From Chloroflexota bacterium (GTDB lineage: Bacteria; Chloroflexota; UBA6077; JACCZL01), in contig JADZEM010000023.1 in NCBI GenBank assembly GCA_020850535.1, positions 26,522-90,521 on the forward strand: a stretch of DNA of 64,000 bases, read 5' to 3'. This document shows, one piece after another, positions 10,452-62,402 of this stretch (position 1 is its first letter; each line of letters begins with the position of its first letter). The position numbers and the translations under genes are program-made. Below the pieces are notes generated by a model that saw only the letters and a program-made list of their open reading frames with translations, did not search any database and was not told where the DNA came from.

Positions 10452-10789
10452 AATCTGCGCTTGCTGATCCCCAGTGCGCTTCTTCGGGGAACCTCATCCC
10501 CCCTGTGCCTCAACTCTTGCGATAGCTCTCGGGCCTTCGTCCTCATCCTTCTTCGTAGGCGCCTCCGGAGCTCCGACCGCACGATGCGGCCAGATGGTGT
10601 GTGGTGTACCGCCGAAGGGACGAGACTGAGGTAGGTTGCTGAGGGGCATGATGGTCGGCTGCCGAGGGGCGCTGCCCCAGCGCGGTCTGGCTGGCTTGAC
10701 CGCGGTAACGATGGTTCGGTCTTCCGCCATGTCGCACGACGCTCGACGCGGTGCTGCGACGGGTGTCGGGCTCCAACGAAGGAGGTTGA

Positions 10790-12982
<2,193 letters not shown>

Positions 12983-41421: not shown

Positions 41422-43668
41422 TCAGTACGGTTCGGGTTCGACGGGCGTCGTGCGGATGGTGACGGACTGCGAGCCGAGATGCTCGGTCGTGGCAGTCACG
41501 GCGATCGTGCCGGCCTGTTCGGTTGACCTGATCCAGACGGCGCCGACGCCACCGGACAGGCTCAGCAGCCGGTCCCCGATCGACTCGCCGGGGCCGTCCA
41601 CCTCCAGCACCACGGCGACGGTCGAGAACGGCCGGCGGTTACCATCGGCATCGACCACGCGAAACACCACCCGCGTAGCATCGCTGCCATCGGCATGCAG
41701 CACACGGTCGTCCGGCTCCACCAGCAGGTGGGCGTCGGTGGCTCGCGCGGCGAACCGCCGGGTCGCCACGAGCCGCTCGCCGATGTACCCCTCGATCCGC
41801 AGATCCTGCAGCCTCTGACCCCACGAGGCCTGCAACGCCTGGGTGAAGAAGGGCGCGTGCGGCAGATATCCGAGGTCGCCACGGTCGGGCAGCACCTCGT
41901 CCACCAGCCGGTCGCCCACGTACAGCTTCAGCCGCTCGACGTTCGAGAGGATCATGCCCAGCCCGGGGCCGCCGGCCGCGCAATCACCCATGGCCCAGGG
42001 GAAGGTCGGCTCGAGGACGATCTCCTCGGCAGGGTCGCACTGGGAGCGGTAGAGCGCGGCGGCCGGCTTCCCTATTCGGAAGATGTCCGAGACGCCGTGG
42101 TAGCAGACACGGTCGCCCGAGCCGAAATCGGCGTGGGTGTTGTAGTCGAAGGCGCACCAGCCGATGCCGCCGGCGTAACCGTCGTGGCTCGCGAGCTGGG
42201 CGTGCATCCTGGCGTGCCAGAGCACGTGCTGCTGGACCCGCTCCACGCCGTCCCACGGCTTGGTCGGGTACATGTGGCCGCCAAACTCAGTCACGAGGTA
42301 GTGCGGATGGTTCGGCGGGCGGATGTCGCTGGACGGGTCGAGGAACTCGTTGAAGGTGAACACGTCTTCGAGTCGCTCGGAGCCGTACCGGTTGCGGACG
42401 CCGCCGGTCTGGCGCGAGTCGTCCAGCTGGTGTGCGATGCGGTTGGTCTGCTCGTAGAAGGCGTGGTTGTCTGGCGACTCGTTGATGCGGACGCCCCACA
42501 GCACGATGCTCGGGTGATTCCAGTCCCGCTCGATCATCTCGCGCACATCGCGGCAGGCCAACTGCTGCCATTCGTCGTCGCCGATGTGCTGCCAGCCAGG
42601 GATCTCCTCGAGCACCAGCAGCCCAAGCTCGTCGCAGGCGTCCAGGAAGGCCGTCGACTGTGGATAGTGGGACGTCCTGACGATGTTCAGCTTCAGCTCG
42701 CGCTTGAGGATGACGGCGTCCCGGCGCTGCACCCGGGCCGGCATCGCGCCGCCGACGTACGGATAGGTCTGGTGACGATTGAGGCCCCGCAGCTTGATCC
42801 GCCGTCCGTTCAGGAAGAAGCCGTCGGGCGTGAAGCGTGCCTCACGGAACCCAAGGCGGGTCCGATACTCGTCAATCGGCTGGCCGTCTTCTGCGAGCGT
42901 CACGGCCGCCGTGTAGAGCTGGGGCGCGTCGAGATCCCAGAGGCGCACGTCTGGGCTGGGAGCAACTGTCAGACGTACTTCCGCTCGTCCCGCCGCAGCG
43001 ACAGTGAGGGGTGCCGAGGCTGTACCGACCTGGCGTCCATCGGGATCGAGCAGCCGGACGCCCACCGCGCGTGAGCGGGCCGCGAAGTCGCTGCCAGCGT
43101 CGAGGGTCACCTGGACGTCAACGCGCCGTTGCCCAGGATCAAGCACAGCGACCGGCTTCACGAACGCGTTGCTGATGGACACGGTCGGCACGACCAGCAG
43201 GCGCGCCTCGCGGTAGATGCCGCCGAACGTCAGATAGTCGATGCGACCGCCGAACGGGGGGATGTGAGGCAGCTCGCGGGAGTCCACCACCGCCGCCAGC
43301 GTGTTCGACTCCCCCCAGCGAAGGTGCTCGGTCAACTCGAACAGCGACGGCAGGTAGCCGCCATCGTATGAGCCGATGGCCTCGCCGTTCAGGAACGTTC
43401 GCGTCGCCGTCATGATGCCGTCGAACTGGACGAAGACGCGTCGTCCCCGTAGTGTCTCGGGCAGGGTGATCTGGCGACGGTAGATCGACTCGAACTGGAA
43501 CGCGCTCTCGTCGAACCCGTGCCAGGGCAGCCGCACGTTCGCATGGGGCAGCGTCACGCGGTCGAACGCCGCATCGTCGAAGGCGGGCTGCTCGGACCCG
43601 GGGACGTAAGCGCCGCCGAACCGCCAGTCACGGTTCAGCGGCGCCACGATGCGCTGGATGGTGCTCAC
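41422..43668 (-). CDS. Glycoside hydrolase family 2 (beta-galactosidase/beta-glucuronidase/beta-mannosidase-like)
   Basis: GH2 sugar-binding, Ig-like and TIM-barrel order. WNHPSIVLWGVRINESP motif has the catalytic acid/base region. Confidence 0.8.
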   Translation of the reverse strand: MSTIQRIVAPLNRDWRFGGAYVPGSEQPAFDDAAFDRVTLPHANVRLPWHGFDESAFQFESIYRRQITLPETLRGRRVFVQFDGIMTATRTFLNGEAIGSYDGGYLPSLFELTEHLRWGESNTLAAVVDSRELPHIPPFGGRIDYLTFGGIYREARLLVVPTVSISNAFVKPVAVLDPGQRRVDVQVTLDAGSDFAARSRAVGVRLLDPDGRQVGTASAPLTVAAAGRAEVRLTVAPSPDVRLWDLDAPQLYTAAVTLAEDGQPIDEYRTRLGFREARFTPDGFFLNGRRIKLRGLNRHQTYPYVGGAMPARVQRRDAVILKRELKLNIVRTSHYPQSTAFLDACDELGLLVLEEIPGWQHIGDDEWQQLACRDVREMIERDWNHPSIVLWGVRINESPDNHAFYEQTNRIAHQLDDSRQTGGVRNRYGSERLEDVFTFNEFLDPSSDIRPPNHPHYLVTEFGGHMYPTKPWDGVERVQQHVLWHARMHAQLASHDGYAGGIGWCAFDYNTHADFGSGDRVCYHGVSDIFRIGKPAAALYRSQCDPAEEIVLEPTFPWAMGDCAAGGPGLGMILSNVERLKLYVGDRLVDEVLPDRGDLGYLPHAPFFTQALQASWGQRLQDLRIEGYIGERLVATRRFAARATDAHLLVEPDDRVLHADGSDATRVVFRVVDADGNRRPFSTVAVVLEVDGPGESIGDRLLSLSGGVGAVWIRSTEQAGTIAVTATTEHLGSQSVTIRTTPVEPEPY

Positions 43669-43689
43669 GTGGTCACCTCTCAGCCTGCC

Positions 43690-44868
43690 TCAGACGGCGC
43701 GCGCTTCGAGCCACTCCTTCGTGATCTCCAGCCCGAAGCCCGGCGCATCGGTCGGGCGGACCCGGCCGTTCTTGATCGCGACGGTGCCCGGCAGCGAGAT
43801 CGTCTCTTCGAGCGGCACGCCTGGAGGCGCGACCCCCTCCGACCGCTCGCCCATCGGGATGGCCGGCATCGCCAGGGCCAGGTGCTGGCCGTACGGGTAG
43901 TTCATGCCGGCGTGCCCGATGACGGTCAGGCCGTGCGCCTCGGCGATGTGGCAGATCCTGACCGACGCCGTCATGCCGCCGACCCACGAGATATCCGGCT
44001 GGAGGATGTCCACGAGGCCCTGGCTGGCCGCCAGCGCGAACGGATGAATGGTGTACCAGTGCTCGCCCGAGGCGAGGGTCGTGCCGGGCAGCCGCTGGCG
44101 AACCTTCATGTAGCTGTCGGTGTCCTCTGGCAGCAGATAGTCTTCGAGCCACTTCACGCGGTAGGGGCGCAACGCGTCCATCAACCGCACGATGTACTCG
44201 ACGTTCAGCGAAAGCCAGGCGTCCACCATCAGCTCGACATCCGGGCCGACCTGCTCGCGGGTCTTTGCGACAAGCTCCTCGCTCTTGCGGATGCCCTCGA
44301 TGCCGTCCTCCGGTCCCCAGGTCAGAAACAGCTTGACGGCCGTGAACCCGAGTTCCAGGAACCACTCAATCGCCGGCTCGACGCCGTACGACAGGTCAGT
44401 GTTGCTGGCGTAGCAGGGGATGCTCTCCTTCTGCGGGCCGCCGAGCAGCTCGTAGACGGGCCGCTTGAGCAGTTTCCCCTTGAGGTCCCAGATGGCGTTG
44501 TCCACGGCGCTGATGGCGTAGCTGGCGAGGCCGGCGGTGCCGTACTGCGCCGAGATCCGCCGCATGATGTCCCAGCACTTCTCGGTCGCCATGGCGTCCT
44601 GGCCCACCAGGGCCGGCGCGAAGTGGCTGTTGATGATCTCCTTGACGGGGCCGCCGTGCGTCGTGATGCCCACGCCGAACGTGCCGTCGTCCGCCGTGAC
44701 CACGCAGGCGACGCGGTGCCAGGGGTTGCCCCAGGTCGACCGCTTGATGTCGGGGTAGCGGGCCATGATCGAGCCGATGCCCTCGTTCGGAAGCTTCGGC
44801 GCGCGCGGCGTGGTCTTGAGCGTCGGCGAGATGTTGACGAACGCGGCGCGGATCTCCTTGATCTTCAT
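43690..44868 (-). CDS. Enolase-superfamily enzyme (mandelate racemase/muconate lactonizing family; sugar-acid dehydratase-like)
   Basis: MR/MLE N-terminal capping domain and barrel with metal ligands (DAWLSLN..., KWLEDY). ATG at 44868 (MKIKEIR). The longer track ORF is rejected. Confidence 0.8.
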   Translation of the reverse strand: MKIKEIRAAFVNISPTLKTTPRAPKLPNEGIGSIMARYPDIKRSTWGNPWHRVACVVTADDGTFGVGITTHGGPVKEIINSHFAPALVGQDAMATEKCWDIMRRISAQYGTAGLASYAISAVDNAIWDLKGKLLKRPVYELLGGPQKESIPCYASNTDLSYGVEPAIEWFLELGFTAVKLFLTWGPEDGIEGIRKSEELVAKTREQVGPDVELMVDAWLSLNVEYIVRLMDALRPYRVKWLEDYLLPEDTDSYMKVRQRLPGTTLASGEHWYTIHPFALAASQGLVDILQPDISWVGGMTASVRICHIAEAHGLTVIGHAGMNYPYGQHLALAMPAIPMGERSEGVAPPGVPLEETISLPGTVAIKNGRVRPTDAPGFGLEITKEWLEARAV

Positions 44869-45193
44869 GGGGATCCCCTTCGTGCGTGAAGATGCAGGGG
44901 CATCATACGCCGGCCGCCGCCGTTGAGCGCTGCCGGCTGCGGCGCTCCCATCGCTCGAGTTGCCAGTTCGCTTACCGGCGGTCGAGCCACTTGCCGTGTT
45001 CTGGCCATCGACAGACGCACAACGTGGACGTGGCGGGCAAGAGCGGGCCCTCTGAGACAGCATCGCACTGAGGCGCAACGTCCGTCTCACCGCTCAACTC
45101 ACGCGCGCGACCGTTCCTGGCGCTAACATAATGCTCGCATCAGGACACGGCGCTCTGGCACGATACGAACATTTGTCCTAGTGGGGGTGGGCG
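44869..45193. promoter_or_regulatory. Divergent intergenic region with locally AT-richer stretch upstream of the cas island
   Basis: 325 bp non-coding gap between divergent genes. Contains CTAACATAATGCTCGCATCAGGACACGG...ACATTTGTCCTAGTGGGGG, which contrasts with the 68% GC background. Confidence 0.3.
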
Positions 45194-45613
45194 ATGGAGC
45201 CTGGCTTAGGGCAGCGAGTGCACGGCGTGAGCGACGATGCGGGACGATCCCTCCACGCCCGGCTGCTAGCTCGCGATCCGACGGCGCCTTCTGATCTGGT
45301 GAGCAGCTACCTGCAGCCGCTCGTCGAATGGCTACTCCGCACGTATGCTCGTCACGATCCAGCCATGTTGGAGTCGATCGCCACGGACCTGCTCCTCGAC
45401 GTTGGTACGCGGCCAGAGCAATACGACCACGACCGCCTCTCCCTGTTCGCTTACCTCCGGATGGCGGCACGTGGAGACGTGAGCAATGCGCTGGAGAAGG
45501 AGCAGCGGCACACAGCTCATCACGTCTCCTGGGCGAACGTCGAGATTGGGCTGCAGGCTCGGAACAGTATGTGGACGAGCGCAGCCGACAAGTGGTCGGT
45601 CGCGACGCGGTGA
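45194..45613 (+). CDS. Hypothetical helical protein with weak sigma-70 region-2-like segment; may be the N-terminal part of a frameshifted longer gene
   Basis: SLFAYLRMAARGDVSNALEKEQR resembles the ECF sigma region 2.2 DNA-melting helix, but no region 4 follows. Reading frame changes near 45540-45560. Confidence 0.3.
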   Translation: MEPGLGQRVHGVSDDAGRSLHARLLARDPTAPSDLVSSYLQPLVEWLLRTYARHDPAMLESIATDLLLDVGTRPEQYDHDRLSLFAYLRMAARGDVSNALEKEQRHTAHHVSWANVEIGLQARNSMWTSAADKWSVATR

Positions 45614-46130
45614 CGGTGGCGGTCCCCTCGGATCGGAAGGACGTCCTGCCGCGCCACACCGCGATCCTCGGGACGACGGGCAGCGGCAAATCGACGTCCG
45701 TGGCGCGACTGATCCAGCAGGCGCAGACCGCCGGCTGCGCCGTGATCTTGCTCGACGTCGAGGGTGAGTACAGCTTCTTGCATGAGCCGACCGAGGCCCC
45801 AGGAATGAGAGCGGCGCTGGAGCGGCGCGGGCTCACCCCTGCCGGCCTGAGCCGGATGTGGCTGTGTCACCTGGTGGGGCGGGAGACGGCCAATCCGGAT
45901 CATCCAACGCGGGCGGCGTTCTCGTTGCGCTTCGAACGGCTCTCGCCGTACGCGATCGTCGAGCTGCTCGACCTGAGCGAGGCGCAGCGGCATCGGTTCC
46001 TGCAAGCGTACGACGCGGCCACGGCGCTGCTGCGCGACCTCCAGATCTTCCCTCAGCCTGGCCAGCCGGAGGATGAGCAGCAGGCGATGGAGTGGGACGA
46101 GCTGGAGGCCGGCTATCCGCGCATGGAGCT
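45560..46130 (+). pseudogene. HerA/DUF87-like P-loop ATPase fragment, out of frame with both neighbours (frameshifted fusion partner of cas10, or decayed gene)
   Basis: RHTAILGTTGSGKSTSVARLIQQAQTAGCAVILLDVEGEYSFLHE matches HerA/DUF87 Walker A (ILGxTGSGKS) and Walker B (iiDpHGEY) spacing. No start or stop of its own in this frame; the frame changes about 46080-46130 into cas10. Confidence 0.35.
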
Positions 46131-47447
46131 GCGGCCCTGGTACCGCTCGGCCGTTTTCTCGACGCGCTCGACGTGCTTCACAGTCGCAGGTCTGCGCTTG
46201 GCGCCACGATCCGAGTGGGGAGAGTCACGCTGCCGGGCGAAGGCTGGACACTCGACGGTGTGTCCGACGAGCGACGTGACCTGGCCGACCGCGCCTGCCG
46301 ATTCGACGGCGAATGGCTGCTCTCCGAGACCTACGAGCGCCGACGCGCCGAGCTCAACCGGCGTGGTGGTGATGCGTCCGCCGTGGCCGCGCTCGACGCC
46401 GCCAGTATCGCGCTTCGTCAGTTTCTGGGCGTCACGAGCCGAATGGGGCTCCGCCAGCCGACGGCCTACTATGCGATCCTGGTGCTCGACGGAGACCGGA
46501 TGGGACGTTGGGTCAGCGGCGACCAGCATCGCGTCACGCTCGGCGAGGCACTTCATCCTGACGCTCGGGCGATGGTGACCGGCGATGCCGATTGGGACTC
46601 GGCACTTGGAGACCGGCGCCTGTTCGGCCCACCCACGCACGCGGCGCTGGGTGCGATACTGCGAGACTTTGCGCTATGGGTCGTCCCGTACGTTGTGGAG
46701 CGCGAACACGGCGGGCGGGTCGTGTACGCGGGCGGGGACGACGTGCTGGCGCTCCTGCCCGCCCACTGTGCGCTCGACGCTGTTGAGGGGCTCCGCGCAC
46801 GGTACACGAGCGCCTTCCTCACGCGTGATGCGCTGGGCGACCTTCACGAGCTGCCCCAGGCGGCTGATCCGGATCTGGTGGTCTTTCGCGGCATGGGGCC
46901 GGATGCTACGGTGAGCGCGGGGCTACTGTTCGCGCATCATCTGTTGCCGCTCGGCCTGGCGCTGGACGAAGCGCGCCGACTTGAGCACCAGTCGAAGGGC
47001 GGCGGTCGCGATGCCGTCGCCGTCGGCGTCGCCCGACGCTCCGGCCCGGATGACGAGCTCGTCGTCGTCAGCAGGCACAGTCGAGGTGGCACACCAATCA
47101 CCAGTCTGGTCGCGACTGCTCGTGCGCTGCTGAGTGGGCCAACCGATTCTGGGGGGCGAGAGCGGGGCGCGGCGTCGAGCCGCCTGCCCTACCTGCTACG
47201 CGAGGCCGCCCCGGTCCTAGATCAGCTGACGGACCCGGCCGCCCGCCGACGTGCAATCATGGCGGTGGCCAACCGCCATGTCGCGGGAGAGGACGGCCGG
47301 CGTCGCCTGCTTGGCCTCTACGACGCCCTCGCCACGCTGCCCCCAGCGTCTTCCGAACGCGCCGCCCCGCTGGCGCCGCCGTCCCGGCCGGTGGACGAGC
47401 TGGCGCGTCTGCTGTGTCTGGCGCGCTTCCTGGAGGCTGGCACATGA
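46092..47447 (+). CDS. cas10: Cas10/Cmr2 (type III-B), minimal form lacking HD nuclease and treble-clef Zn finger
   Basis: Palm-1-like AYYAILVLDGDRMGRWVSG and the cyclase GGDD motif (VVYAGGDDVLALLP), then a C-terminal helical D4. Only about 450 aa and no Cys4 cluster. ATGA overlap with cmr3. 5' boundary uncertain. Confidence 0.8.
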   Translation: MGRAGGRLSAHGAAALVPLGRFLDALDVLHSRRSALGATIRVGRVTLPGEGWTLDGVSDERRDLADRACRFDGEWLLSETYERRRAELNRRGGDASAVAALDAASIALRQFLGVTSRMGLRQPTAYYAILVLDGDRMGRWVSGDQHRVTLGEALHPDARAMVTGDADWDSALGDRRLFGPPTHAALGAILRDFALWVVPYVVEREHGGRVVYAGGDDVLALLPAHCALDAVEGLRARYTSAFLTRDALGDLHELPQAADPDLVVFRGMGPDATVSAGLLFAHHLLPLGLALDEARRLEHQSKGGGRDAVAVGVARRSGPDDELVVVSRHSRGGTPITSLVATARALLSGPTDSGGRERGAASSRLPYLLREAAPVLDQLTDPAARRRAIMAVANRHVAGEDGRRRLLGLYDALATLPPASSERAAPLAPPSRPVDELARLLCLARFLEAGT

Positions 47448-48577
47448 TCCGCCTGTTCGTCGAGCCGCTGGACGTCTGGCTTTTTCGAGACGGTCGCCCG
47501 TTCACGGCCGGCGCCGACCATCACGCGCGTTCGGTCTTCCCGCCGAGCCCGCGCACGCTCTACGGCGCGTTGCGCACGAAGCTGCTATTCGACGCGGTCG
47601 AGCGGGGCGAAGGGAGTCTGAACGACCCCGGATTCGTCGAGCGAACGGTGGGACGGCCGGATGATCTGGAGCGTTTGACGCTGCGTGGGCCGCTGCTCGG
47701 ACGGAGACGCGCGGACAGCCAGGTCGAGCGATTCTTCCCGGCCCCGCTCGACCTGGCCCGAACCGACGACGCCGCCACCTCGACCCTTTCGTGGCGGATA
47801 CTGACGCCACGAGCCGATGTCCCGGGCCTCATCACCGACATCGGGCTCGCGGTGCCGTGGGCGGACACCGACGCGCGGCCCGCGTCTGCCGAGGGCCAGT
47901 GGCTGCCCGAAGGTGACTTCTTCGTCACGCTGTTGGGCGAGCGGCGCCAGCCAACGCCGGCAAGCGACCTGTACGAGACGGAGCGGCGGAGCGGCATCGA
48001 GCTGGACGCCGGCGCCGAGGGAGGTCGCACCCGCGGCGTGGTGCGTGAGGGACGGCTGTACTCGATAGCATTCGTCCGTCCGTCGGATGGCGTTGGGCTC
48101 TGCCTCGACGTGGACGGGCTCGACGATCTTGGAGAGGTTGGTCTCATCGGGCTCGGTGGCGAGGGCCGGGCCAGTCGCTATCAGACGACAACGGTGCCGA
48201 CGTTCGACCGGTCGGCCGTACGTGAGCGGGTCTTCCGAGACGGCCGGTTCAAGCTGGTGCTCGTGACGCCGGCCCTGTTCGATGGCGGCTGGCTCCCGTC
48301 CTGGATCGACCCGGCGACCATGACGACGTCTGGCAACGCCGCGGGGCTACGACTGGTCGGAGCGGCGGTTGGACGATCCGCCCCGGTCGGCGGATTCGAC
48401 GTGCGCGCCGGGCGCCCACACGTGACTCGTCCGGCCGTGCCGGCCGGCAGCGTCTACTGGTTCGAGGAGATCGCGCGGGGAGCCGCCGGTCGGGCGTTCG
48501 ACGCGCTGGACGGACGGACCATCGCCGACGAGGCCGCGACGATCGGCTTCGGGCTGTGCTACCTGGGGGTTTGGTGA
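47444..48577 (+). CDS. cmr3: Cmr3 (type III-B Cas5-group RAMP)
   Basis: N-terminus MIRLFVEPLDVWLFRDGRPF is the canonical Cmr3 start. Gly-rich segments follow. Position after cas10. Confidence 0.8.
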   Translation: MIRLFVEPLDVWLFRDGRPFTAGADHHARSVFPPSPRTLYGALRTKLLFDAVERGEGSLNDPGFVERTVGRPDDLERLTLRGPLLGRRRADSQVERFFPAPLDLARTDDAATSTLSWRILTPRADVPGLITDIGLAVPWADTDARPASAEGQWLPEGDFFVTLLGERRQPTPASDLYETERRSGIELDAGAEGGRTRGVVREGRLYSIAFVRPSDGVGLCLDVDGLDDLGEVGLIGLGGEGRASRYQTTTVPTFDRSAVRERVFRDGRFKLVLVTPALFDGGWLPSWIDPATMTTSGNAAGLRLVGAAVGRSAPVGGFDVRAGRPHVTRPAVPAGSVYWFEEIARGAAGRAFDALDGRTIADEAATIGFGLCYLGVW

Positions 48578-48579
48578 CG

Positions 48580-49515
48580 ATGTACGAACGAGCGGCCGTG
48601 ATCGGTTTCTACGCTGAGACGCCGATGCATCCGGGACGCGGAGCCTCGGTGGGGGCGATCGACCTGCCGGTTCAACGGGAGCGGCACCTCGACTACCCGA
48701 TGATCCCCGGCAGCAGCCTGAAGGGGGCGCTGCGTGCGCGTGCGCGGGGACGGCCGGGCTGGTCGTCCGCGGCAGGCAGCCTGAGCAAGCTGACCACGGT
48801 GTTCGGGCCAGAGACGGACCATGCCAGCGATCATGCCGGCGCGCTCGCGCTCACCGATGCCCGCCTGCTGCTGTTCCCGGTGCGGTCGCTGCACGGCGTG
48901 TTCGCCTGGACGACGAGCCCGCTGGCGCTGACGCGCTATCAGCGCGACCTCGTGGCTGCCGGCGCGATCGTCCCCTGGCAGCCGCCGGTCGTTCAGGGAG
49001 GTCACGCCCTGGTCGCGCCCGGAGCGGAGGTGGCGGCGAACGGCGCCGTCACACTGGAGGAGTTCTCGTACGCGGCCGGCGACAGTCCGGCAGTCCGTGC
49101 CATCGCAGACGACCTGGCTGCGACGCTGTTGCCGGACTCGGCCGAGTACGCGCCGTGGCAGGAGCGGCTGCCGCGCCAGTTGGTGGTACTGCCAGATGAC
49201 GACTTTCGGGACTTCGTGAGGACGGCGACCGAGATTGTCGCACGCATCCGGATCGACGACGAAACCGGCACCGTCGCGGATGGCGGGCTCTGGTACGAGG
49301 AGCAGATCCCGCCCGAGTCGCTCTTCTACGCGCTGGCGCTGGCGACGCCGCCGCGCACTCGCAACGGCGGGACCGGGCTCCCGCGCAGCGCGGCCGAGGT
49401 GTTGGCGACGCTCGACGACCTGGGGCTGGACCGGCTCCAGCTCGGCGGGGACGAGACCGTCGGGCGCGGGATCGTCAAGGTACGGGTCCGACGGACCGAC
49501 GGAGTGGGGCGATGA
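48580..49515 (+). CDS. cmr4: Cmr4 (type III-B Cas7-family backbone RAMP)
   Basis: ETPMHPGRGASVGAIDLPV (the catalytic Asp loop is conserved) and IPGSSLKGALRA RAMP motif. C-terminal G-rich LGGDETVGRGIVKV. Confidence 0.85.
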   Translation: MYERAAVIGFYAETPMHPGRGASVGAIDLPVQRERHLDYPMIPGSSLKGALRARARGRPGWSSAAGSLSKLTTVFGPETDHASDHAGALALTDARLLLFPVRSLHGVFAWTTSPLALTRYQRDLVAAGAIVPWQPPVVQGGHALVAPGAEVAANGAVTLEEFSYAAGDSPAVRAIADDLAATLLPDSAEYAPWQERLPRQLVVLPDDDFRDFVRTATEIVARIRIDDETGTVADGGLWYEEQIPPESLFYALALATPPRTRNGGTGLPRSAAEVLATLDDLGLDRLQLGGDETVGRGIVKVRVRRTDGVGR

Positions 49516-49913
49516 GCGAGCCAGGTATCCCCCGTCGCCAGACCGTCGAGCAGGAACGGGCGAAGTTCGCGCTCGGCCGCGTGCACGACGTGAAGGGCCA
49601 TCACCAGTGGATGGCCAGGGCGTACCGGCGGGAGGTGATGGGTCTACCGGCGATGATCCTGGTCAACGGCCTGGGCCAGACGCTCGCGTTCCTCAAGGCG
49701 AAGGGTGCCGGCAGCCTGAACGAGCACGCCGTGGCGTATCGACATTTGAGCGATTGGGTCGGAAAGCAGTTGAGCCTGCCGGGTGACCTGCTGGAGGAGA
49801 TCACGCGCATGGACGTCGGTCGGTACCGGCTGGCCCAGGCCGAGGCATTGGCCGTGCTGACATGGCTGAAGCGGTTCGCGGAGTCCGAGATCGACGAGGA
49901 GCGTCGATCGTGA
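49512..49913 (+). CDS. cmr5: Cmr5 (type III-B small subunit, Cas11 family)
   Basis: 133 aa all-helical protein with GLGQTLAFLKAKG resembling the Cmr5 signature. Position between cmr4 and cmr6. Confidence 0.7.
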   Translation: MSEPGIPRRQTVEQERAKFALGRVHDVKGHHQWMARAYRREVMGLPAMILVNGLGQTLAFLKAKGAGSLNEHAVAYRHLSDWVGKQLSLPGDLLEEITRMDVGRYRLAQAEALAVLTWLKRFAESEIDEERRS

Positions 49914-50821
49914 GCGTGCCGCGCGGACCTCAAGCAGGGCGCGGGGCGCCGTCCGGTGGCGGCGGGGCTCGACGGGGTCAGAACGGCCCACCGGCGGGGC
50001 ATGGCGGAGTGCCGGGCGGGCACGGCGCGCTCCCGCTGCCATCCGCGACTGTCCAGGCGATTCAGGCGGCCGGCGGGGTTGGACGGTGCAGCAATCTGTC
50101 GCTGGCGCTGAACCGCTTCGTCGATGCCTGGCGTCCGGGCTTCGCGGGAGTTGACGATGCCCGGCGCCGGCAGTTCCTGGCGGCCTGCATCGGCATCTTG
50201 CAGGACGCCCGAGTCGGCGTCCTGCTCGACCAGTATCAGGCCCGGCAGGCGGCGCTGCTGGAGAGCTATCGTCGCGATGGCTGGCAGCGCCAGATCGTGC
50301 GCGGCCGGTTGACGCGCCGACTGGTGATCGGGCTGGGGATCGCCCACCCGCTGGAGACGAATCTGGCGCTGCACCGGATCGGCGGGTTCCCCTACCTGCC
50401 GGGCAGCACGGTCAAGGGAGGCGTTCGAGCCGCTGCCGAGGAGCTCGACGGGGCCGACAGTGACGTGGTCCGCCGCGCGTTCGGCCCGGCCTCGGACGAG
50501 GATGCGCATGCACGGGGGGTGCTGGTCTTCCTGGATGCATTCCCAGAGCCCGGCTTCCGACTCGCCGTTGATGTGATGACGCCACACCACCGCGCGTACT
50601 ACACCGGGTCGGAACCGCCGGCCGACTGGCAGAGCCCGAACCCGATCCTGTTCCCGTGTGTGGAGCGAGGGTCCGTGTTCAGGTTCGCGGTCGCCTGCCG
50701 CGATTCCGACACGGCGACGTCAGGGTGGGGGCAAATCATGGATTGGTTGAATGAGGCTCTGCGAGACGGCCTGGGCGGAAAGCGGAGCGCGGGGTACGGG
50801 GCATTTGAGGTGATCGGATGA
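49910..50821 (+). CDS. cmr6: Cmr6 (type III-B Cas7-family RAMP)
   Basis: GFPYLPGSTVKGGVRAA RAMP motif and terminal G-rich loop GGKRSAGYGAF. GTG start overlapping the cmr5 stop. Confidence 0.8.
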   Translation: MSVPRGPQAGRGAPSGGGGARRGQNGPPAGHGGVPGGHGALPLPSATVQAIQAAGGVGRCSNLSLALNRFVDAWRPGFAGVDDARRRQFLAACIGILQDARVGVLLDQYQARQAALLESYRRDGWQRQIVRGRLTRRLVIGLGIAHPLETNLALHRIGGFPYLPGSTVKGGVRAAAEELDGADSDVVRRAFGPASDEDAHARGVLVFLDAFPEPGFRLAVDVMTPHHRAYYTGSEPPADWQSPNPILFPCVERGSVFRFAVACRDSDTATSGWGQIMDWLNEALRDGLGGKRSAGYGAFEVIG

Positions 50822-52128
50822 AGAGTGCGCTCATCGTGACCGTGGGGACGGCCGATCCGACGCAGCCGGACCGTGTCACGAGTCTCGTCGATTCAATAAA
50901 GAGCGCAATACAGAAGGCACGATCAGAGCGCGTTGTGCTCCTGGCAAGTGACGGAAGCATGGCCCTCGCCGAGCGGGTTCGGGCTGAGTTGGACCGGGGT
51001 GAGCAGGTGCAGATCTCACGGGTCTCGGACTCGGACCACTATGAGCGCGTGTTTCAGGATGCGCTGGTTGTATTCCGCACACTGCGGGAGACCTGTGAGC
51101 CGGCTGAGATCGAGCTCGACTTCACCAGTGGTACGAAGGCCATGTCGGTGGGAGCAGCGCTGGCTGCGGCGGTCGTCGGCAGCGGCGAGTGGCGCTACAC
51201 CGCCGGCGACCGACCGACCGGGACCGTGGCGGCTGGTACGGAAGAGATCCTCAGCCGGAGCCCTATGCGTGTGCGGGCACACTTCGACCTACAGGCTGCC
51301 GTGCGGCTGTTCGAAGCGCTCCAGTTCGCGGCGGCGCGGACGCTCCTCAGCGAGATCAATCCGGGCCTGCTCGACGACCACGGGCGCCGGCTCCACGCGA
51401 GCCTGATGGTTCTGGTCGATGCCTACGACGCGTGGGACAAGTTTGACCATGCAGGCTTCAAGGACCGCTATCGCAAGCCTGATGCCGACCTGCATGATCT
51501 TGGCGCGTTCGCCGTCGCCGACAAGGTGCGGGGCTCAATCGGGCAGATGGCTTCAGCGAACAGTAGACCGCCATCCGGAGGCCGGAAGACGACGACGACC
51601 GCGGACCACCTGGCCGACCTTTGGAATAACGCCCAGCGACGGTTGGCCGAGGGCAAGCTCGACGACGCGGTCGCGCGTCTCTATCGCCTGACCGAGATGA
51701 TCGCGCAGTACGTCCTGGATTCGACGTACGGCATCGAGACCTCCAATGTCGAACTTTCTGCGCTACCGGCGGAACTGACAGATAACGCTCGCACGTGGCT
51801 GGAGGCGATAGCTGTAGTGGTCGATGCCCAGGGCAACGAATCGAGGCAACCGGTCAAGCTCGGGCTGCGAGATGACTTCAGGCTGTTGGCCGGTCTGGGT
51901 CACGCCATTGGGCCGCTGGTGTCGCCCTTCGGCGCGAAGCCGACGCGGCTGAACCACTTCCTGGATACGCGGAACGCGAGCATCCTCGCGCACGGTACGA
52001 CACCCATCAGCGCCGATGACGCGCACGCACTGGCAGAGGAGGTCCGCGAGCTGGCGGTGCTCGCTGTCCCGGACTTCGAGGCGCGCGCCGCCCGGCTCCA
52101 GTTCCCGTGGCTGGCGACGAAAGAGTAG
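50818..52128 (+). CDS. csx1: CARF-HEPN ancillary RNase (Csx1/Csm6 family, TIGR02710-like)
   Basis: N-terminal CARF Rossmann fold (LIVTVGTADPT ... LDFTSGTKAMS). C-terminal HEPN R-X6-H motif (RNASILAHG). Confidence 0.75.
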   Translation: MKSALIVTVGTADPTQPDRVTSLVDSIKSAIQKARSERVVLLASDGSMALAERVRAELDRGEQVQISRVSDSDHYERVFQDALVVFRTLRETCEPAEIELDFTSGTKAMSVGAALAAAVVGSGEWRYTAGDRPTGTVAAGTEEILSRSPMRVRAHFDLQAAVRLFEALQFAAARTLLSEINPGLLDDHGRRLHASLMVLVDAYDAWDKFDHAGFKDRYRKPDADLHDLGAFAVADKVRGSIGQMASANSRPPSGGRKTTTTADHLADLWNNAQRRLAEGKLDDAVARLYRLTEMIAQYVLDSTYGIETSNVELSALPAELTDNARTWLEAIAVVVDAQGNESRQPVKLGLRDDFRLLAGLGHAIGPLVSPFGAKPTRLNHFLDTRNASILAHGTTPISADDAHALAEEVRELAVLAVPDFEARAARLQFPWLATKE

Positions 52129-52134
52129 CGGGTA

Positions 52135-53208
52135 ATGGCTGAGGAGGCTGCGCCGTTGGCGCCGAGGTTCCAGGTTCATCTGTTGCGGTTTCGGGCCGAG
52201 GTGACGGCGCCGCTGCTGCTCCCGCCGGCTGCCGGCGCCGCGCTACGCGGAGCACTCTTCGGGGCGCTGCGCCAGCAGTTCTGCCTGGCCGGACGCGGTC
52301 CGCGTTGCGGCCGGCCGGAGCTAGCGGCGAGCTGCCCGGTCTGCTTCCTGTTGGCCCCGGTGGACGAGCAGGATCGCCGTGGCCGCGACGTCCCCAGGCC
52401 GTACGTGCTCCGCGCCCCGATGCTCGACGTCCCGGAGGTGGTCCGTCCGCTCACCTATGCACCGGGACAGCACCTGGAGTTCGAGCTGGCGACGTTCGGG
52501 CGGGCGCTGGGGCAGTTCCCGTACGCGCTGCTGGGAGTTGAGGAGATGGGCCGGCAAGGACTCGGGGCACGGCGGCAGGGGCAGTTCCGACTGGACGAGG
52601 TCTGGGCGGTGAATCCGCTGGCCGGGCGGCAGGAGGCGATCTACCGGCGGTCCCGAGACAGCGTCGTGCGTGCCCCGAGCCTGCCGGTCGACGGCGAGCA
52701 GGTGGCGGAGGAGGCGGCCGTGCTCGCGCGGCGCGGAGGCGACCATCGACTGCGGCTGACGCTGGTCACGCCGACGCGGCTGATCGAACGGGATCGGCTG
52801 GTCAAGCAGGACGCGTTCGAGTTTGGGCCGTTCCTGGCCCGGTTGCTGGAGCGGCTGAGCGCGCTGTTCGGCCGGTACGGCGACGAGATCAGCCGTGAGG
52901 AGGGAGCCGGCCGCGACGACAGGGCTGGTGCCGGTCACGGTGTGGCCGCTCGGCCGTTCGAAGCGTCTGCGCTGCTGAGCGCGGCCGGCGGGGTCCGGAT
53001 CGCCGAGCGACGGCTGGTCTGGCGCGAGCTGTTCCGAGCCTCGGGGCGACACGGTCGGATGGTGCCGATGGGCGGCCTGATGGGCGAGGTGGTCCTGGAG
53101 GGCGACCTCGGCCCGTACCTGCCCTGGCTGGTCTGGGGCAGCCTGGTGCACGTGGGGAAGGACGCGGCGATGGGGAACGGCCAGTTCAGGCTGGAGGCGG
53201 CGGGGTGA
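52135..53208 (+). CDS. cas6: Cas6-like RAMP endoribonuclease with Cys4 insertion (alternative: divergent Cmr1)
   Basis: N-terminal LLLPPAAGAALRGALFGALR resembles the Cas6 ferredoxin-fold start. CX8CX8CX2C insertion. C-terminal Gly-rich loop GKDAAMGNGQF. Sits immediately upstream of cas1. Confidence 0.5.
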   Translation: MAEEAAPLAPRFQVHLLRFRAEVTAPLLLPPAAGAALRGALFGALRQQFCLAGRGPRCGRPELAASCPVCFLLAPVDEQDRRGRDVPRPYVLRAPMLDVPEVVRPLTYAPGQHLEFELATFGRALGQFPYALLGVEEMGRQGLGARRQGQFRLDEVWAVNPLAGRQEAIYRRSRDSVVRAPSLPVDGEQVAEEAAVLARRGGDHRLRLTLVTPTRLIERDRLVKQDAFEFGPFLARLLERLSALFGRYGDEISREEGAGRDDRAGAGHGVAARPFEASALLSAAGGVRIAERRLVWRELFRASGRHGRMVPMGGLMGEVVLEGDLGPYLPWLVWGSLVHVGKDAAMGNGQFRLEAAG

Positions 53209-54353
53209 GCGAGACCATGGGGACTGAGGCGATGCCCGAGCAGCCGACCGAGCCTGCGCCGACGATCGTGGCACCATCATCGATACGGGGGCGTGCGCGG
53301 ATCGCGACGATCGAGGATGCGGCCGGGCGGCCGGACGAGTATCTGATCGTGGATCAGTATGGGGCGTTCCTGGGCCGGCACAGCGAGCGCCTGAAGCTGA
53401 CGGTGAAGGGCGAGCTGGTAGAGGAACGTCCGCTGCTGGGGCTGGAGCACGTGCTGGTGCTGGCCGGCGGGGTGAGCCTGAGCGCGGACGCGATCCGAGG
53501 GTGCGCGGAGCGGGGCATCCAGATCAGCTTCGTCTCACGGAGCGGGGCGCCGTACGCAAAGCTGATCGCGCCTGAGCTGACGGGGACGGTCCAGACGCGT
53601 CGGCAGCAGCTGCTGGCGTTCGGGGACGAGCGTGGGGTCCACCTGGTCCGGGCGTTCGCGGTGGGCAAGCTTCAGAACCAGGCGACGCTGTTGAAGTACA
53701 TCGCGAAGTATCGCCAGACGGCGGCTCCCGAGTCGTATGAGATGGCTCGCGAGGCGGCGTTCCGGATCGAGCACCTGGCCCGGCGGATCACGGAGGTGGC
53801 TGGCGAGACAGCGGACGAGATTCGGATGCCGGTGATGAACCTGGAAGCTCAGGCGGCGCGCCACTACTGGGAAGCGGCCCGCCACCTGGTTGCATTGCCA
53901 GCCGGCGTGGAGTGGCCGGGGCGCGAGACGCGCGGGGCGGCGGACCTGGTGAACCAGTGCCTGAACTACGGCTACGGCATCCTGTACGCCCAGGTGGAGC
54001 GGTCGGTGCTGCTGGCCGGTCTGGATCCGTACGCCGGGTTCCTGCACGAGGACCGGCCCGGCAAGCCAAGCCTGGTACTGGACCTGATCGAGGAGTTCAG
54101 GTCGTACGCGGTGGACCGGTGCGTCTTCGCGTTGCTGAATCAGCGGGTCCAGCTTGCGCAGGACGACCGTGGCCGTCTTGACGACTCTACTCGGACGACG
54201 CTGGCGAAGCGGGTGAACGAGCGGCTGGAAGGTGAGGAGCAGCATGAGGGGCGGAAGCGGCGGCTGCGCACGATCATCCAGTCGCAAGCCCGGCGGGTGG
54301 CGACGTTCGTGCGCGGCGAGGCGGTCTACAAGGCGTGGGCCGGCCGGTGGTGA
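53205..54353 (+). CDS. cas1: Cas1 integrase
   Basis: Cas1 fold motifs (LKLTVKGELVE..., GVSLSADAIRGCAERGIQISFVS, catalytic region NYGYGIL...HEDRPGKPSLVLDLIEEFR). N-terminal roughly 40 aa extension makes the start uncertain. Confidence 0.85.
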   Translation: MSETMGTEAMPEQPTEPAPTIVAPSSIRGRARIATIEDAAGRPDEYLIVDQYGAFLGRHSERLKLTVKGELVEERPLLGLEHVLVLAGGVSLSADAIRGCAERGIQISFVSRSGAPYAKLIAPELTGTVQTRRQQLLAFGDERGVHLVRAFAVGKLQNQATLLKYIAKYRQTAAPESYEMAREAAFRIEHLARRITEVAGETADEIRMPVMNLEAQAARHYWEAARHLVALPAGVEWPGRETRGAADLVNQCLNYGYGILYAQVERSVLLAGLDPYAGFLHEDRPGKPSLVLDLIEEFRSYAVDRCVFALLNQRVQLAQDDRGRLDDSTRTTLAKRVNERLEGEEQHEGRKRRLRTIIQSQARRVATFVRGEAVYKAWAGRW

Positions 54354-54358
54354 CGAGC

Positions 54359-54841
54359 CTACGGTGTGCCACGGGGCGTCAGACTCTCCAGGAGCTGGTG
54401 AATGACGGCGTTGCTCAGGCGCATACCATCGGCTTGCAGCCGGCGCAGCAGCGGCTGGACCGCGTCTCTGGGGATCACGCCATCGCGGCCTGCCTGGACG
54501 AGGATACCGGCTGTGCCGATATGCAAGATGTCGCGCTCTCGGGCGATCCGTCGGGCCTGACGGTCGTCGACGAGCAAGAGCGCACTGCGCTCCGCTGCGA
54601 GCGCCAAAGCCCAGGACTCGCCCTTGTTGACGCCGGTCGCCATCTGCGCGACCAATGCTTCGGACTGTGGATCCACGATGCGCAGCCAGGTGACCCGTGC
54701 GAGCTCGGCTGCCCCCGCCCCGCCTGCTGTGATTTCCTGAAAGACAAGCGATGGGACCAGGATGTGGCCAAACAGTTGAGGCAGGAGTTCGTGCGCACCG
54801 ATGCGGGCCAGCGAGATCAGCGGGCCCGCGTCGGAGATGAC
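54359..54841 (-). CDS. PIN-like nuclease toxin, DUF3368 family
   Basis: VISDAGPLISLARIGAHELLPQLFGHILVPSLVFQEI resembles the DUF3368/PIN N-terminus. Pairs with an upstream UPF0175 gene. Start codon not resolved. Confidence 0.5.
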   Translation of the reverse strand, partial: VISDAGPLISLARIGAHELLPQLFGHILVPSLVFQEITAGGAGAAELARVTWLRIVDPQSEALVAQMATGVNKGESWALALAAERSALLLVDDRQARRIARERDILHIGTAGILVQAGRDGVIPRDAVQPLLRRLQADGMRLSNAVIHQLLESLTPRGTP

Positions 54842-55149
54842 CTCTGGGGCCGACTCTTCCAGGCGGCCAGCGTCTGCAGGTCGTGCTCCAGGCTCTCCTC
54901 GGTCACTTCGGTGTGCGGGACGCCGTGGCGCGCCAGCAGATCGAGCCACGACGCCCTCGTCAGGCCGAGCAGCTCGGCGGCCTTCCCCCCGGATAGGTCC
55001 CCACGGCGGAAGAGTTCGACGACTGCCAGCTCCATGAGGTGCCTGGCTGCTCCCTCGGGCGACGTGCCCAGCAGCCGAGCCACGCTCTCCGGCAGTTCGA
55101 TGGTGACTTGCTGCATCTTCGGCCGCGCGGGCACGGATGAGGTGCTCAT
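54817..55149 (-). CDS. UPF0175-family antitoxin (partner of DUF3368 toxin)
   Basis: Small helical protein (VTIELPESVARLLGTSPEGAARHLMELAVVELFRRGDLSGGKAAELLGLTRASWLDLLARHGV) typical of UPF0175. Overlaps the toxin start. Confidence 0.5.
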   Translation of the reverse strand: MSTSSVPARPKMQQVTIELPESVARLLGTSPEGAARHLMELAVVELFRRGDLSGGKAAELLGLTRASWLDLLARHGVPHTEVTEESLEHDLQTLAAWKSRPQRSSPTRAR

Positions 55150-55532
55150 GACTAGAGTGTACACGCAGCACGGACGCCATCACACGCTGAGCGTAGCACA
55201 TCGTCGGCGGGTCTTGCGGCCTATGGAGCAGTCTGGTACAACGAGATGAATTCTGAAGCGGTTCGGACCGGAGGGACTCGATCCGCCTCAGGGATACTGA
55301 AAAATGGACCAGTCCGGTCAATTCAGCCAAGCCCTCCGGTCTACACCGACCATCGCCCGCCCGTGCAGAGCTACCTCCCTGTATCGCCAGATCGCGATTT
55401 CCGTCAATGGCGTCGAGCTTCAGGGCGCCGGCGCGGAACACGGTGTTGGGTCGGCAGAGCACGATGCGTGTGGCATCAGTACGTAACAATCGAGTGCGCG
55501 CCGTACCTCCTACCGTAGCTGGAGGTCTCGCT

Positions 55533-55760
55533 ATGAGAAGGCCCGCCACCGATCGGCCTCGTCTGTTGAACAATCCAGGTGAACGACTTATCGCTGACGT
55601 GTTCGCACAGCGAAGCCGGAAGCACGCCTCTTGGGGCGACTGCGCCGAGCTCGTCGTCCTGACGCTGGAAGCGACAGGAGTACTCCGTCACTACGTAGAG
55701 CCGGGTATCGATCCGCTGGAGAGGATCCAGGCGTTCAACACCGACGCGGATCGCGAATGA
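55533..55760 (+). CDS. Small ORF (75 aa) translationally coupled to cas3; unknown function
   Basis: ATG at 55533 preceded by GGAGGT at optimal spacing. Stop overlaps the cas3 ATG (ATGA). No recognisable motifs. Confidence 0.4.
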   Translation: MRRPATDRPRLLNNPGERLIADVFAQRSRKHASWGDCAELVVLTLEATGVLRHYVEPGIDPLERIQAFNTDADRE

Positions 55761-62153: not shown

Positions 62154-62402
62154 GTGATGCGGTGCCTGGTGGTCTACGACATCTCGGATGGTCGCGCGCG
62201 GGCGAAGGTGGCGGACTACTGCCAGGACTACGGCCTCAGCCGCATCCAGTATTCCGCGTTTCTCGGCGACATCTCGCGCGCGCACCAGAACGAGCTGCTC
62301 CAGAAGATCCGCCGCCGGCTCGCTCGGCTGGAATCGAGAGTCGTCCTGCTCCCACTCTGCGAGACTGACTTCCGCGCTCGGCGGGAGGTGGTGATCTCAT
62401 GA
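62154..62402 (+). CDS. cas2: Cas2 endoribonuclease
   Basis: MRCLVVYDISDGRARAKVADYCQDYGLSRIQYSAFLGDIS is the canonical Cas2 N-terminus with catalytic Asp. About 82 aa. Confidence 0.8.
   Translation: MMRCLVVYDISDGRARAKVADYCQDYGLSRIQYSAFLGDISRAHQNELLQKIRRRLARLESRVVLLPLCETDFRARREVVIS

Follow-up and report, generated by a model that had tools for sequence, protein, structure and literature searches.

Organization of the three segments

The window analyzed here (the whole 64-kb stretch of DNA) contains three protein-like segments resembling a sigma factor, a HerA/DUF87-type ATPase and Cas10. An earlier note had proposed that they might represent a single gene of ~750 codons broken by two frameshifts, a decaying fusion, or a Cas10 in which a P-loop ATPase domain has taken the place of the HD domain. 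The question raised by this locus is whether it encodes a novel form of Cas10 or the debris of separate genes. The results presented below favor, with a probability of about 85%, the view that the segments are remnants of three separate genes joined by two deletions at the margin of a CRISPR locus.

Homology searches supported the head-to-tail arrangement of the segments on the plus strand in three different frames, essentially at the coordinates proposed previously, and both profile and homolog matches agreed with the families to which they had been assigned. The breakpoints were placed to within ~20 nt, and each fragment was identified and delimited as follows.

45194..45568, plus strand: 5′ remnant of a sigma-like gene (weak Sigma70_r2 and TIGR02937 matches, alignment of relatives, family profile versus PDB)
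45569..45588, no strand assigned: junction 1, 20 nt assignable to neither side (sigma homology ends at ~45568; DNA identity to herA of loci L003/L004 starts at 45589)
45589..46133, plus strand: internal fragment of a HerA-like ATPase gene (blastn versus L003/L004, alignment with HerA of L059, DUF87)
46134..46151, no strand assigned: junction 2 (identity to L003 herA ends at 46133–46137; homology to Cas10 of L052/L059 starts at residue 7–9 counted from 46134, at 46152–46158)
46152..47447, plus strand: 3′ fragment of cas10/cmr2 (PF22335, TIGR02577, alignments to homologs and to Cas10 of L052/L059)

The G+C content of the region of overlapping ORFs is 69%. Frame 1 is open from 45328 to 46578 and frame 0 from 46092 to 47447, while the frame-2 ORF ends at a TGA (45611–45613); contrary to the earlier note, the segments are thus not devoid of stops between them, and the ORFs overlap. 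GC3 frame plots favored frame 1 for the HerA piece. In cas10, frames 0 and 1 could not be separated in this way, because G+C is equally high at the first and third codon positions, and the choice of frame there rests on homology. Both frames had been considered plausible protein at 46080–46130, but homology in this stretch is confined to frame 1 (HerA), that of Cas10 beginning only beyond it.

The sigma-like fragment (frame 2) corresponds to residues 1–125 of about 217 and comprises a sigma-2-like domain only, sigma-2 being the domain that contacts core polymerase and the −10 element; its ORF runs on to the TGA through out-of-frame herA sequence. Taken alone, the matches to Sigma70_r2 of Pfam (E = 0.018; 15.3 bits, cutoff 24) and TIGR02937 (E = 0.0033) are below curated thresholds. 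The sigma-like gene of relatives matched the segment in tblastn with an E value of 1e-16, the family profile matches ECF sigma factors in the PDB (E = 3e-4 to 4e-3), and the homolog in L059 matches PRK12519 (E = 2e-5). The fragment aligns to the first gene of a five-gene module (described below) in loci L001, L002, L007–L018, L052 and L059, and the homology ends at about residue 125–128. As judged from the alignment, the sigma-4 helix-turn-helix domain, which recognizes the −35 element, is absent, the window copy ending before the conserved C-terminal block of ~85 residues found in the relatives (consensus ...LELMLxGERxT...EVKRxKDRxKKRL).

The HerA-like fragment (frame 1) corresponds to residues 192–372 of the 635-residue HerA of L059. 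It matches DUF87 (E = 6.8e-17) and is 60–89% identical to HerA-like proteins; the PADLOC and NCBIfam HerA models are covered in part, with scores far under the NCBIfam cutoffs. Of the two Walker motifs reported previously, GTTGSGKS is indeed the Walker A P-loop, but LLDVEGEY is a conserved D-x-EGEY motif located downstream of it. Inspection by eye placed the hhhhEEAH stretch of the relatives (LIIIEEAHEF in L002, VLIVVEEAHEF in L003) in the part that is missing: the fragment lacks the C-terminal half of the ATPase core, and with it Walker B and the catalytic glutamate. The N-terminal barrel, which occupies ~190 residues before Walker A in homologs, is represented in none of the window's frames.

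Comparison with herA of L003/L004 (blastn) revealed 83% DNA identity over exactly 45589–46133, with an abrupt stop at both ends. Beyond the match, L003 herA continues for 2 kb on the upstream side and for 0.75 kb on the downstream side, and the window is unmatched there. The closest HerA relatives diverge fully from the window after ...GYPRMELR, and in the nearest of them (P0081; 89% identical) normal HerA sequence persists past this point. Several apparent extensions were rejected. The similarity reaching upstream to 45574 (“DERSR” versus “DIRLG”) is no better than chance when the DNA is compared (7/18 nt), and BLAST extensions past 46134 (to 46188–46377) are of low identity and compositional. 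The GTGA overlap (TGA at 45611–45613, GTG at 45610) was also considered as a translationally coupled gene junction; GTGACGGTGGC proved to be internal, in-frame herA sequence in L003, and the GTG an internal herA valine codon conserved in that locus.

The Cas10/Cmr2 fragment (frame 0) begins near residue 517 of the 940–946-residue reference proteins of L052/L059 and reaches their C-terminus; it contains a linker, palm2 with the GGDD motif, and the C-terminal helical domain. PF22335 (Cas10-Cmr2_palm2) matches residues 126–310 (E = 4.6e-22), and YAGGDDVLAL is invariant in the alignment of Cas10 homologs. Every Cas10 profile matches the window by its C-terminal part only; TIGR02577 (E = 7e-37) does so by model positions 332–509 of 510. 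The alignment with the L052/L059 proteins extends to residue 939–944 of 940–946, demonstrating that the C-terminal domain is present, and the fragment also aligns to residues 604–717 of P. furiosus Cmr2 (4w8y_A). In the reference proteins Cmr2_N lies at 185–302 and palm2 at 616–809. The N-terminal part of a Cas10/Cmr2 protein comprises Cmr2_N (the first palm domain), a zinc-finger region and, in long forms, an HD domain. Some 510 residues, from the HD-motif region at the N-terminus through Cmr2_N and the middle region, are absent from both the fragment and the 64-kb window. What had been termed a minimal Cas10 is a truncated copy: all 79 homologs (with the window's own entry left out; 540–770 aa or partial) align to it from their residue about 260–390 or later.

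The annotated Cas10 ORF (451 aa) begins at GTG 46092, inside the herA fragment. Its product is identical to a MAG protein in NCBI, from a Chloroflexi bacterium, that carries the name Cas10/Cmr2, and is a singleton; exact-sequence look-up of this protein and of P0107 returned no contig.

Intact relatives and the missing DNA

Two metagenomic contigs, L052 (488 kb) and L059, are collinear with the window from the sigma gene through csx1. All genes are intact in these loci, in the order sigma (217 aa), p125 (the small protein), M78, NurA-like (442 aa), HerA (635 aa), Cmr1 (386 aa; TIGR01894), Cas10 (940 and 946 aa), Cmr3, Cmr4, Cmr5, Cmr6 and Csx1. Sigma, herA and cas10 are separate here, with four genes counted between the first two and cmr1 between herA and cas10, so the sequences for which a decaying fusion had been considered were never fused. 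With a separate, intact herA in the homologs, the window copy is a decayed remnant, an outcome that the earlier note had itself foreseen.

Relative to L059, ~3.35 kb is missing at junction 1 (the 3′ portion of the sigma gene, the genes for the small protein, the M78 peptidase and the NurA-like protein, and herA codons 1–191) and ~3.56 kb at junction 2 (the last 263 herA codons, all of cmr1 and the first 510–520 cas10 codons). The missing parts (Cas10 N-terminus, Cmr1, M78, NurA-like protein, HerA termini) left no tblastn trace anywhere in the 64-kb window, and the searches found no relative with an intact locus at >90% DNA identity.

These comparisons leave almost no probability for a single long sigma/HerA/Cas10 gene with sequencing errors or programmed frameshifts and a HerA P-loop in place of HD. 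Such a gene would be in keeping with segments that abut without intergenic space and with the two ORF overlaps. However, the pieces belong to different genes: repair of the frames would yield a protein made of half of a sigma factor, half of Cas10 and, between them, a HerA core lacking Walker B, and cannot restore the ~6.9 kb that is missing. In addition, no slippery heptamer was seen by eye at 45569–45613 or 46092–46151, and the GTG overlapping the TGA is the herA valine codon mentioned above. HerA and Cas10 are not carried in one polypeptide in any of the 80 Cas10 homologs (for which the only domains listed are PF22335, PF12469 and PF18182) or the 104 HerA homologs. Nor is this a P-loop substituted for the HD domain of Cas10, since Cmr2_N and the middle region are gone as well, the HerA piece is without Walker B, and the two frames differ.

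The arrangement most probably arose from an ancestor, whose gene order is preserved in L052 and L059, in which a five-gene module immediately preceded a type III-B operon (cmr1, cas10, cmr3–6, csx1). In the lineage of the window, one deletion of ~3.35 kb would have removed the DNA from mid-sigma to mid-herA and another, of ~3.56 kb, that from mid-herA to mid-cas10, which would leave three fragments abutting, each in a different frame. Judging from their sequences, the fragments would do nothing as a unit: there is no sigma-4 domain, no Walker B and only half of Cas10, and Cmr1 is gone.

An artefact of assembly could produce a similar picture: the real genome would carry the intact module, cmr1 and a full-length cas10, and two blocks would have been skipped, or strain variants mixed, during metagenome assembly. 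The sequence is indeed a MAG contig (Chloroflexi bacterium), the only one of its kind in the collection. The stretches joined at either junction are collinear in the intact relatives, where 3.3–3.6 kb separates them, and collapse across shared k-mers could yield such joins. This explanation is nevertheless unlikely. It requires two independent skips within 550 bp, a search for repeats in and around the region detected none, and the flanks are contiguous over 64 kb with coherent genes; true deletions, which are common in defense islands, give the same pattern. We infer that the deletions are biological rather than the result of an assembly skip.

Less probable again, and by our estimate very improbable, is the entry of a CRISPR-cas island, or part of one, into herA, with the 3′ half of that gene lying beyond the window. 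Defense islands are recombination hot spots, and the window covers only 64 kb of a 92.6-kb contig. Such an insertion, however, does not fit a junction at which cas10 is truncated and cmr1 is missing, and in the intact relatives herA is already located immediately upstream of cmr1-cas10. Moreover, no herA 3′ sequence was found in the 17 kb downstream, and a simple deletion within the module accounts for junction 1.

Remnants of three genes joined by two deletions thus remain the preferred reading, and the pattern is one of ordinary gene decay, with deletion scars and nothing new as a Cas10 type.

Downstream type III-B genes

The fragments are followed by genes of a type III-B (Cmr) system.

47414..48577, plus strand: cmr3 (PF09700, E = 5.5e-61, positions 3–367 of 367, full length; TIGR01888)
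48556..49515, plus strand: cmr4 (TIGR02580, E = 3.5e-70, positions 3–283 of 283, full length)
49512..49913, plus strand: cmr5 (PF09701, E = 3.5e-33)
49862..50821, plus strand: cmr6 (TIGR01898, E = 5.6e-34, ORF residues 151–316)
50818..52128, plus strand: CARF-HEPN effector of the TIGR02710 / Csm6-Csx1 type (TIGR02710, E = 2.9e-49; Csm6 HEPN, E = 1.1e-29)

The true start of cmr6 is probably later than the listed one, given the 52-nt overlap of its ORF with cmr5 and a family match restricted to residues 151–316. Neither cmr1 (tblastn) nor a CRISPR array was found in the 64-kb window. The cmr3–6 and csx1 genes look intact, so either the event was recent or the remaining genes are still used.

The cyclase active pocket of Cas10 is composite and lies between two palm domains. 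Because it spans both of them, the type III-B effector encoded here should no longer be able to make cyclic oligoadenylate; in this system cyclic-oligoadenylate signaling was probably lost and the CARF-HEPN effector retained.

The state of these genes also bears on whether a truncated Cas10 (palm2 and the C-terminal domain, ~430 residues) might be made from an internal start and work with Cmr3–6 and crRNA in the absence of Cmr1, which, if true, would represent a naturally minimized type III-B complex. Full-length family matches without frameshifts in cmr3–6 and the CARF-HEPN gene are the only hint in this direction; the frame-0 ORF is open from GTG 46092. Against it, half of Cas10 and all of Cmr1 are lost, the exact protein is a singleton, no homolog shares the length and boundary of the fragment, and no convincing ribosome-binding site precedes GTG 46092 (by eye, a GGAGGA is situated 18 nt upstream). 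The probability of such a complex is very small, slightly below that of an insertion into herA. Locus L005 was inspected as a possible natural split Cas10 (392 + 542 aa) and rejected: its two parts are separated by a frameshift within a continuous conserved stretch, and neither split nor minimal Cas10 forms find support in it.

The five-gene module

The module from which the first two fragments are derived consists of genes encoding an ECF-like sigma factor, a small helix-turn-helix-like protein, an M78 peptidase, a NurA-like nuclease and a HerA-like ATPase. Twelve GTDB genomes representing four phyla share this gene order; herA was checked in 11 of them and is one intact ORF in each. The module is complete in 30 of the 31 metagenome loci with room for it, and intact copies are carried, for example, by Myxococcus xanthus AM003 and Corallococcus coralloides KYC2213 (loci L012 and L013). 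The intact module repeatedly adjoins CRISPR adaptation genes (cas4/cas1-cas2) or a type III-B operon, with herA directly upstream; it is widespread and often found beside cas genes.

The M78 peptidase matches the PADLOC capP model (E = 3e-8). The NurA-like protein has no match by sequence in Pfam, NCBIfam, PADLOC or the PDB, and its modeled fold best matches NurA. No description of the module was found in the limited set of literature searched. It is of more value than the scar itself and merits its own study.

Comparison with known systems

Pseudogene remnants and deletion scars are a general and well-known phenomenon in bacterial genomes. The window likewise contains fragments of neighboring genes in different frames and long spurious ORFs at high G+C, its only peculiarity being that a pipeline named the remnant ORF Cas10/Cmr2. 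This calls for caution: where genomic G+C is high, deletion fragments read as long overlapping ORFs, and catalogues of “minimal” Cas10 proteins or new fusions can absorb such scars; a public record already names one of those ORFs a 451-aa “Cas10/Cmr2”.

With type III-B (Cmr) systems, such as those of L052/L059 (Cmr2 structures 3ung and 4w8y), the window shares cmr3–6 and the TIGR02710 effector in canonical order, and its Cas10 piece keeps the palm2 GGDD motif and the C-terminal domain. It differs from them in having no cmr1, no CRISPR array and none of the first ~510 residues of Cas10.

In Myxococcus xanthus, control of a CBASS / type III-B island is ascribed to the ECF sigma factor DdvS and the anti-sigma factor DdvA (PMC11506125). 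CapH/CapP of CBASS are described as a helix-turn-helix repressor and an M78 peptidase (bioRxiv 10.1101/2022.04.27.489752). As far as these descriptions go, the intact module may be analogous, since it opens with an ECF-like sigma factor, a small helix-turn-helix-like protein and an M78 peptidase. Any regulatory role of the sigma remnant in the window is lost, as only the sigma-2-like half is left.

HerA-NurA pairs beside type III CRISPR-cas cassettes have been reported as clusters 57 and 58 (“Type III coevolved”; PMC6546367). The intact relatives likewise pair a HerA-like ATPase with a protein of predicted NurA fold, next to cmr1 or cas4/cas1-cas2. The bacterial module differs by its sigma factor, small protein and M78 peptidase, which do not figure in the lists for those clusters. 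The window retains of such a pair only HerA residues 192–372, the NurA-like gene having been deleted.

Probable gene remnants at positions 45194–47447 and their surroundings

Three ORFs with real family signals occupy three different reading frames in this region, as described in the earlier note. Since the G+C content of the window is 66–72%, long overlapping ORFs are to be expected.

45194–45613, + strand, frame 2: weak sigma-70 region 2/ECF signal (Pfam, E 0.018; TIGR02937, E 0.0033)
45328–46578, + strand, frame 1: clear HerA/DUF87 signal around GTTGSGKS (E 6.8e-17)
46092–47447, + strand, frame 0: clear Cas10/Cmr2 palm2 signal (PF22335, E 4.6e-22; TIGR02577, E 7e-37)

The segments are not free of intervening stops as first read: the frame-2 ORF ends at its own stop codon (45611–45613). 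The LLDVEGEY stretch, taken for Walker B, corresponds to the D-x-EGEY motif that follows Walker A, and at 46080–46130, where two frames had appeared plausible, homology supports only that of HerA. A GTGA stop-start overlap (45610–45613) was considered as a gene junction and rejected, because it lies inside herA sequence that the related locus L003 shares.

Upstream of the remnants, on the opposite strand, lie an enolase-superfamily gene and a family-2 glycoside hydrolase gene. The following features were identified downstream:

47414–48577: cmr3
48556–49515: cmr4
49512–49913: cmr5
to 50821: cmr6
50818–52128: CARF-HEPN gene (TIGR02710), followed by cas6
53205–54353: cas1, after cas6
further downstream: type I set of cas3, cas8, cas7, probable cas5 (no family match, assigned from its position), cas2 and cas4
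62166–62360, + strand: the cas2 of this set, a cas2-like sequence (tblastn with Cas2 of locus L002, E 2e-8)

Neither cmr1 nor a CRISPR array was found anywhere in the 64-kb window. The cas2-like sequence sits between the probable cas5 and cas4, away from cas1, which stands apart after cas6. Between cas1 and cas3, two minus-strand ORFs within 54359–55573 resemble, by eye, a toxin-antitoxin pair: a UPF0175-like antitoxin (54817–55164) and a PIN/DUF3368-like protein within the long ORF 54359–55573. The 304-aa plus-strand ORF at 54335–55249 has no family match and is probably spurious.

Each segment is part of a longer gene

Proteins of the sigma-like family have an N-terminal half resembling sigma-2, and their C-terminal block is conserved and helix-turn-helix-like; the family profile matches ECF sigma factors in PDB (E 3e-4). 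The window copy aligns through ...VEIGLQARNS (approximately residue 125) and then stops; it represents the 5′ half of the gene that opens the conserved module described below.

HerA homologs carry approximately 190 residues ahead of the Walker A region as well as a long C-terminal half. The herA genes of Logan contigs L003 and L004 share 83% DNA identity with the window over exactly 45589–46133, the similarity ending abruptly on both sides, and in L003 the gene runs on for 570 bp (190 codons) upstream and ~750 bp downstream of the matching part. By eye, Walker B of L003 was placed in the stretch VSVIDLSD... and VLIVVEEAHEF, within the continuing gene. The closest HerA protein (P0081, 89% identity) has a normal ...ELRLLMDVVGG... 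where the window reads ...ELRPWYRSAV. Judged from these sequences, the window HerA piece is an internal fragment, the DNA comparison with L003 and L004 being decisive.

The herA genes of several relatives are themselves interrupted. In the closest herA relative, gaps totaling 11 nt relative to the window, with a shift of frame, occur at ~2290–2310 of L003 and ~2311–2331 of L004 (window 45797–45822) and are common to these two independent assemblies; in contigs L001 and L002 herA is split into two or three ORFs, possibly through long-read errors. The breaks reflect either repeated decay in this clade or assembly errors.

The Cas10 segment, previously regarded as minimal, proved to be truncated. 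Its homologs are mostly 540–770 aa or partial, and most contain Cmr2_N (PF12469) together with palm2. When all of them were compared with 43001–48000 by tblastn, matches were found only from 46200 on, starting at homolog residue ~260–390, and every Cas10 profile was matched by its C-terminal part only. The alignment showed that the N-terminal conserved blocks (LGPVQxFIAxARR..., the CxxC zinc-finger region and FPSTS) are missing, and residues 106–229 of the fragment (numbered from 46134) align with 604–717 of full-length P. furiosus Cmr2 (4w8y_A). A public protein from a 92.6-kb contig, [quoted passage not shown], has exactly the sequence of the 451-aa frame-0 product and is a singleton in the collection; the ORF begins with 14 codons of herA read out of frame.

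The nearest Cas10 relatives apart from L052 and L059 are also interrupted: L005 by a frameshift within a conserved stretch (~7240–7260; gene called as 392 + 542 aa), and L006 by an apparent in-frame stop right after GGDDVLA (3871–3873), as judged from one tblastn alignment that continues past the called end of the gene. Sequencing errors or continuing decay of this Cas10 lineage could account for both.

Intact counterparts and two missing blocks

A metagenome scan with the ~420-aa protein of the module yielded 80 loci. In two of these, L052 (a 488-kb contig) and L059, the whole stretch between the sigma gene and csx1 is intact and collinear with the window; it encodes, in order, sigma (217 aa), p125, M78 peptidase, NurA-like ~420-aa protein (442 aa), HerA (635 aa), Cmr1 (386 aa; TIGR01894), Cas10 (940 and 946 aa; Cmr2_N at 184–302, palm2 at 616–809), Cmr3, Cmr4, Cmr5, Cmr6 and Csx1. 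In pairwise alignments the window pieces correspond to sigma residues 1–125, HerA residues 192–372 and Cas10 from residue 517–520 to the end. Two blocks of L059, 4927–8272 (~3.35 kb) and 8816–12405 (~3.56 kb), are thus absent, being matched in the window by gaps of 20 nt and ~24 nt; the missing parts were not found elsewhere in the 64 kb.

The three segments are best explained, with a probability of approximately 0.85, as remnants of three separate genes in an ordinary deletion scar, in which two deletions of ~3.35 and ~3.56 kb would have placed the sigma, herA and cas10 remnants side by side. An assembler that skipped both blocks would leave the same picture in what is a MAG sequence, but this is improbable, since the assembler would have had to skip twice, independently, at points 545 bp apart, and repeats were not detected around the junctions. 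A single gene broken by frameshifts finds no support, because frame correction cannot restore 6.9 kb; nor does a former fusion, because the genes are separate in all relatives (sigma and herA four genes apart, herA and cas10 one gene apart). The view that a HerA domain replaces HD is likewise unsupported, as none of 80 Cas10 and 104 HerA homologs combines the two domains. Of the earlier reading, the three segments and their frames hold, some details do not, and the novel architecture finds no support.

If the deletions are genuine, functional consequences would be expected from the loss of sigma-4 in the first remnant and of Walker B and both flanking domains in the HerA remnant. The Cas10 remnant lacks ~510 residues. 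The cyclase pocket of Cas10 is formed jointly by two palm domains, so signaling to the CARF-HEPN effector has probably been lost. The genes cmr3–6 and csx1 still look intact, which points to an event of recent date or to a problem in the assembly.

A conserved five-gene module and its linkage to cas genes

Contigs L001 and L002, which carry HerA homologs, encode in fixed order a sigma-like protein (~216 aa), a 125-aa protein (p125), an M78/ImmA-IrrE peptidase, a ~420-aa protein and HerA. A scan using one genome per species found all five genes, arranged in this way, in 12 genomes, of Chloroflexota, Planctomycetota, Myxococcota (Myxococcus xanthus AM003, Corallococcus coralloides KYC2213) and Flavobacteriales (Bacteroidota). 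herA is a single ORF in all 11 genomes checked (most ~610–680 aa, with uncertain ORF starts). Of 31 metagenome loci long enough to hold the module, 30 have it complete. Its remnants in the window span 45194–46133.

Loci with the intact module
L007–L018
L028–L107, for example L059 (4549–9607) and L052 (8134–13164)
L001, 4595–9631
L002, 4918–9922

The HerA-like ATPase of the module is ~620–635 aa long, p125 is small and helix-turn-helix-like, with an AARD[RK]E motif conserved at its C terminus, and the M78 peptidase is CapP-like. The ~420-aa protein has no sequence match in Pfam, NCBIfam, PADLOC or PDB; it has >1,300 homologs, every source name shown being “hypothetical protein”. A Foldseek search of PDB with its AlphaFold2 model (mean pLDDT 73.6, pTM 0.72) returned NurA nucleases as the top eleven matches (best 2ygk_A, E 3e-6; modest TM-scores of 0.3–0.5), and the matches also include nuclease subunits of TdpAB and of the T. 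kodakarensis HerA-NurA complex. The predicted fold thus fits NurA best, and because of this the module may be described as a putative bacterial HerA-NurA-like pair preceded by an ECF-like sigma factor, p125 and a CapP-like M78 peptidase.

cas genes occur within 10 kb of the module in 7 of 18 loci having at least 5 kb on each side (a raw count), and also in 5 of the first 14 loci. The neighbors are either a type III-B operon or cas4/cas1-cas2, the latter often right after herA; commonest is a cas4/cas1 fusion with cas2, in places starting ~30–90 nt after the herA stop codon.

Arrangement of cas genes near the module
L002 (9951–12003), L010 (12375–14405), L011 (3340–5147), L065, L077, L106: cas4/cas1-cas2 just downstream of herA
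L001, L008, L075: divergent, upstream of the module
L052, L059: cmr1-cas10... directly downstream
L053, L087: cas6-cas1...

This frequent linkage to CRISPR-cas genes suggests an accessory, regulatory or prespacer-processing role. No description of the five-gene bacterial module was found in the literature searched, where absence is not proof. For archaea, HerA/NurA pairs are listed among type III-associated accessory genes (PMC6546367).
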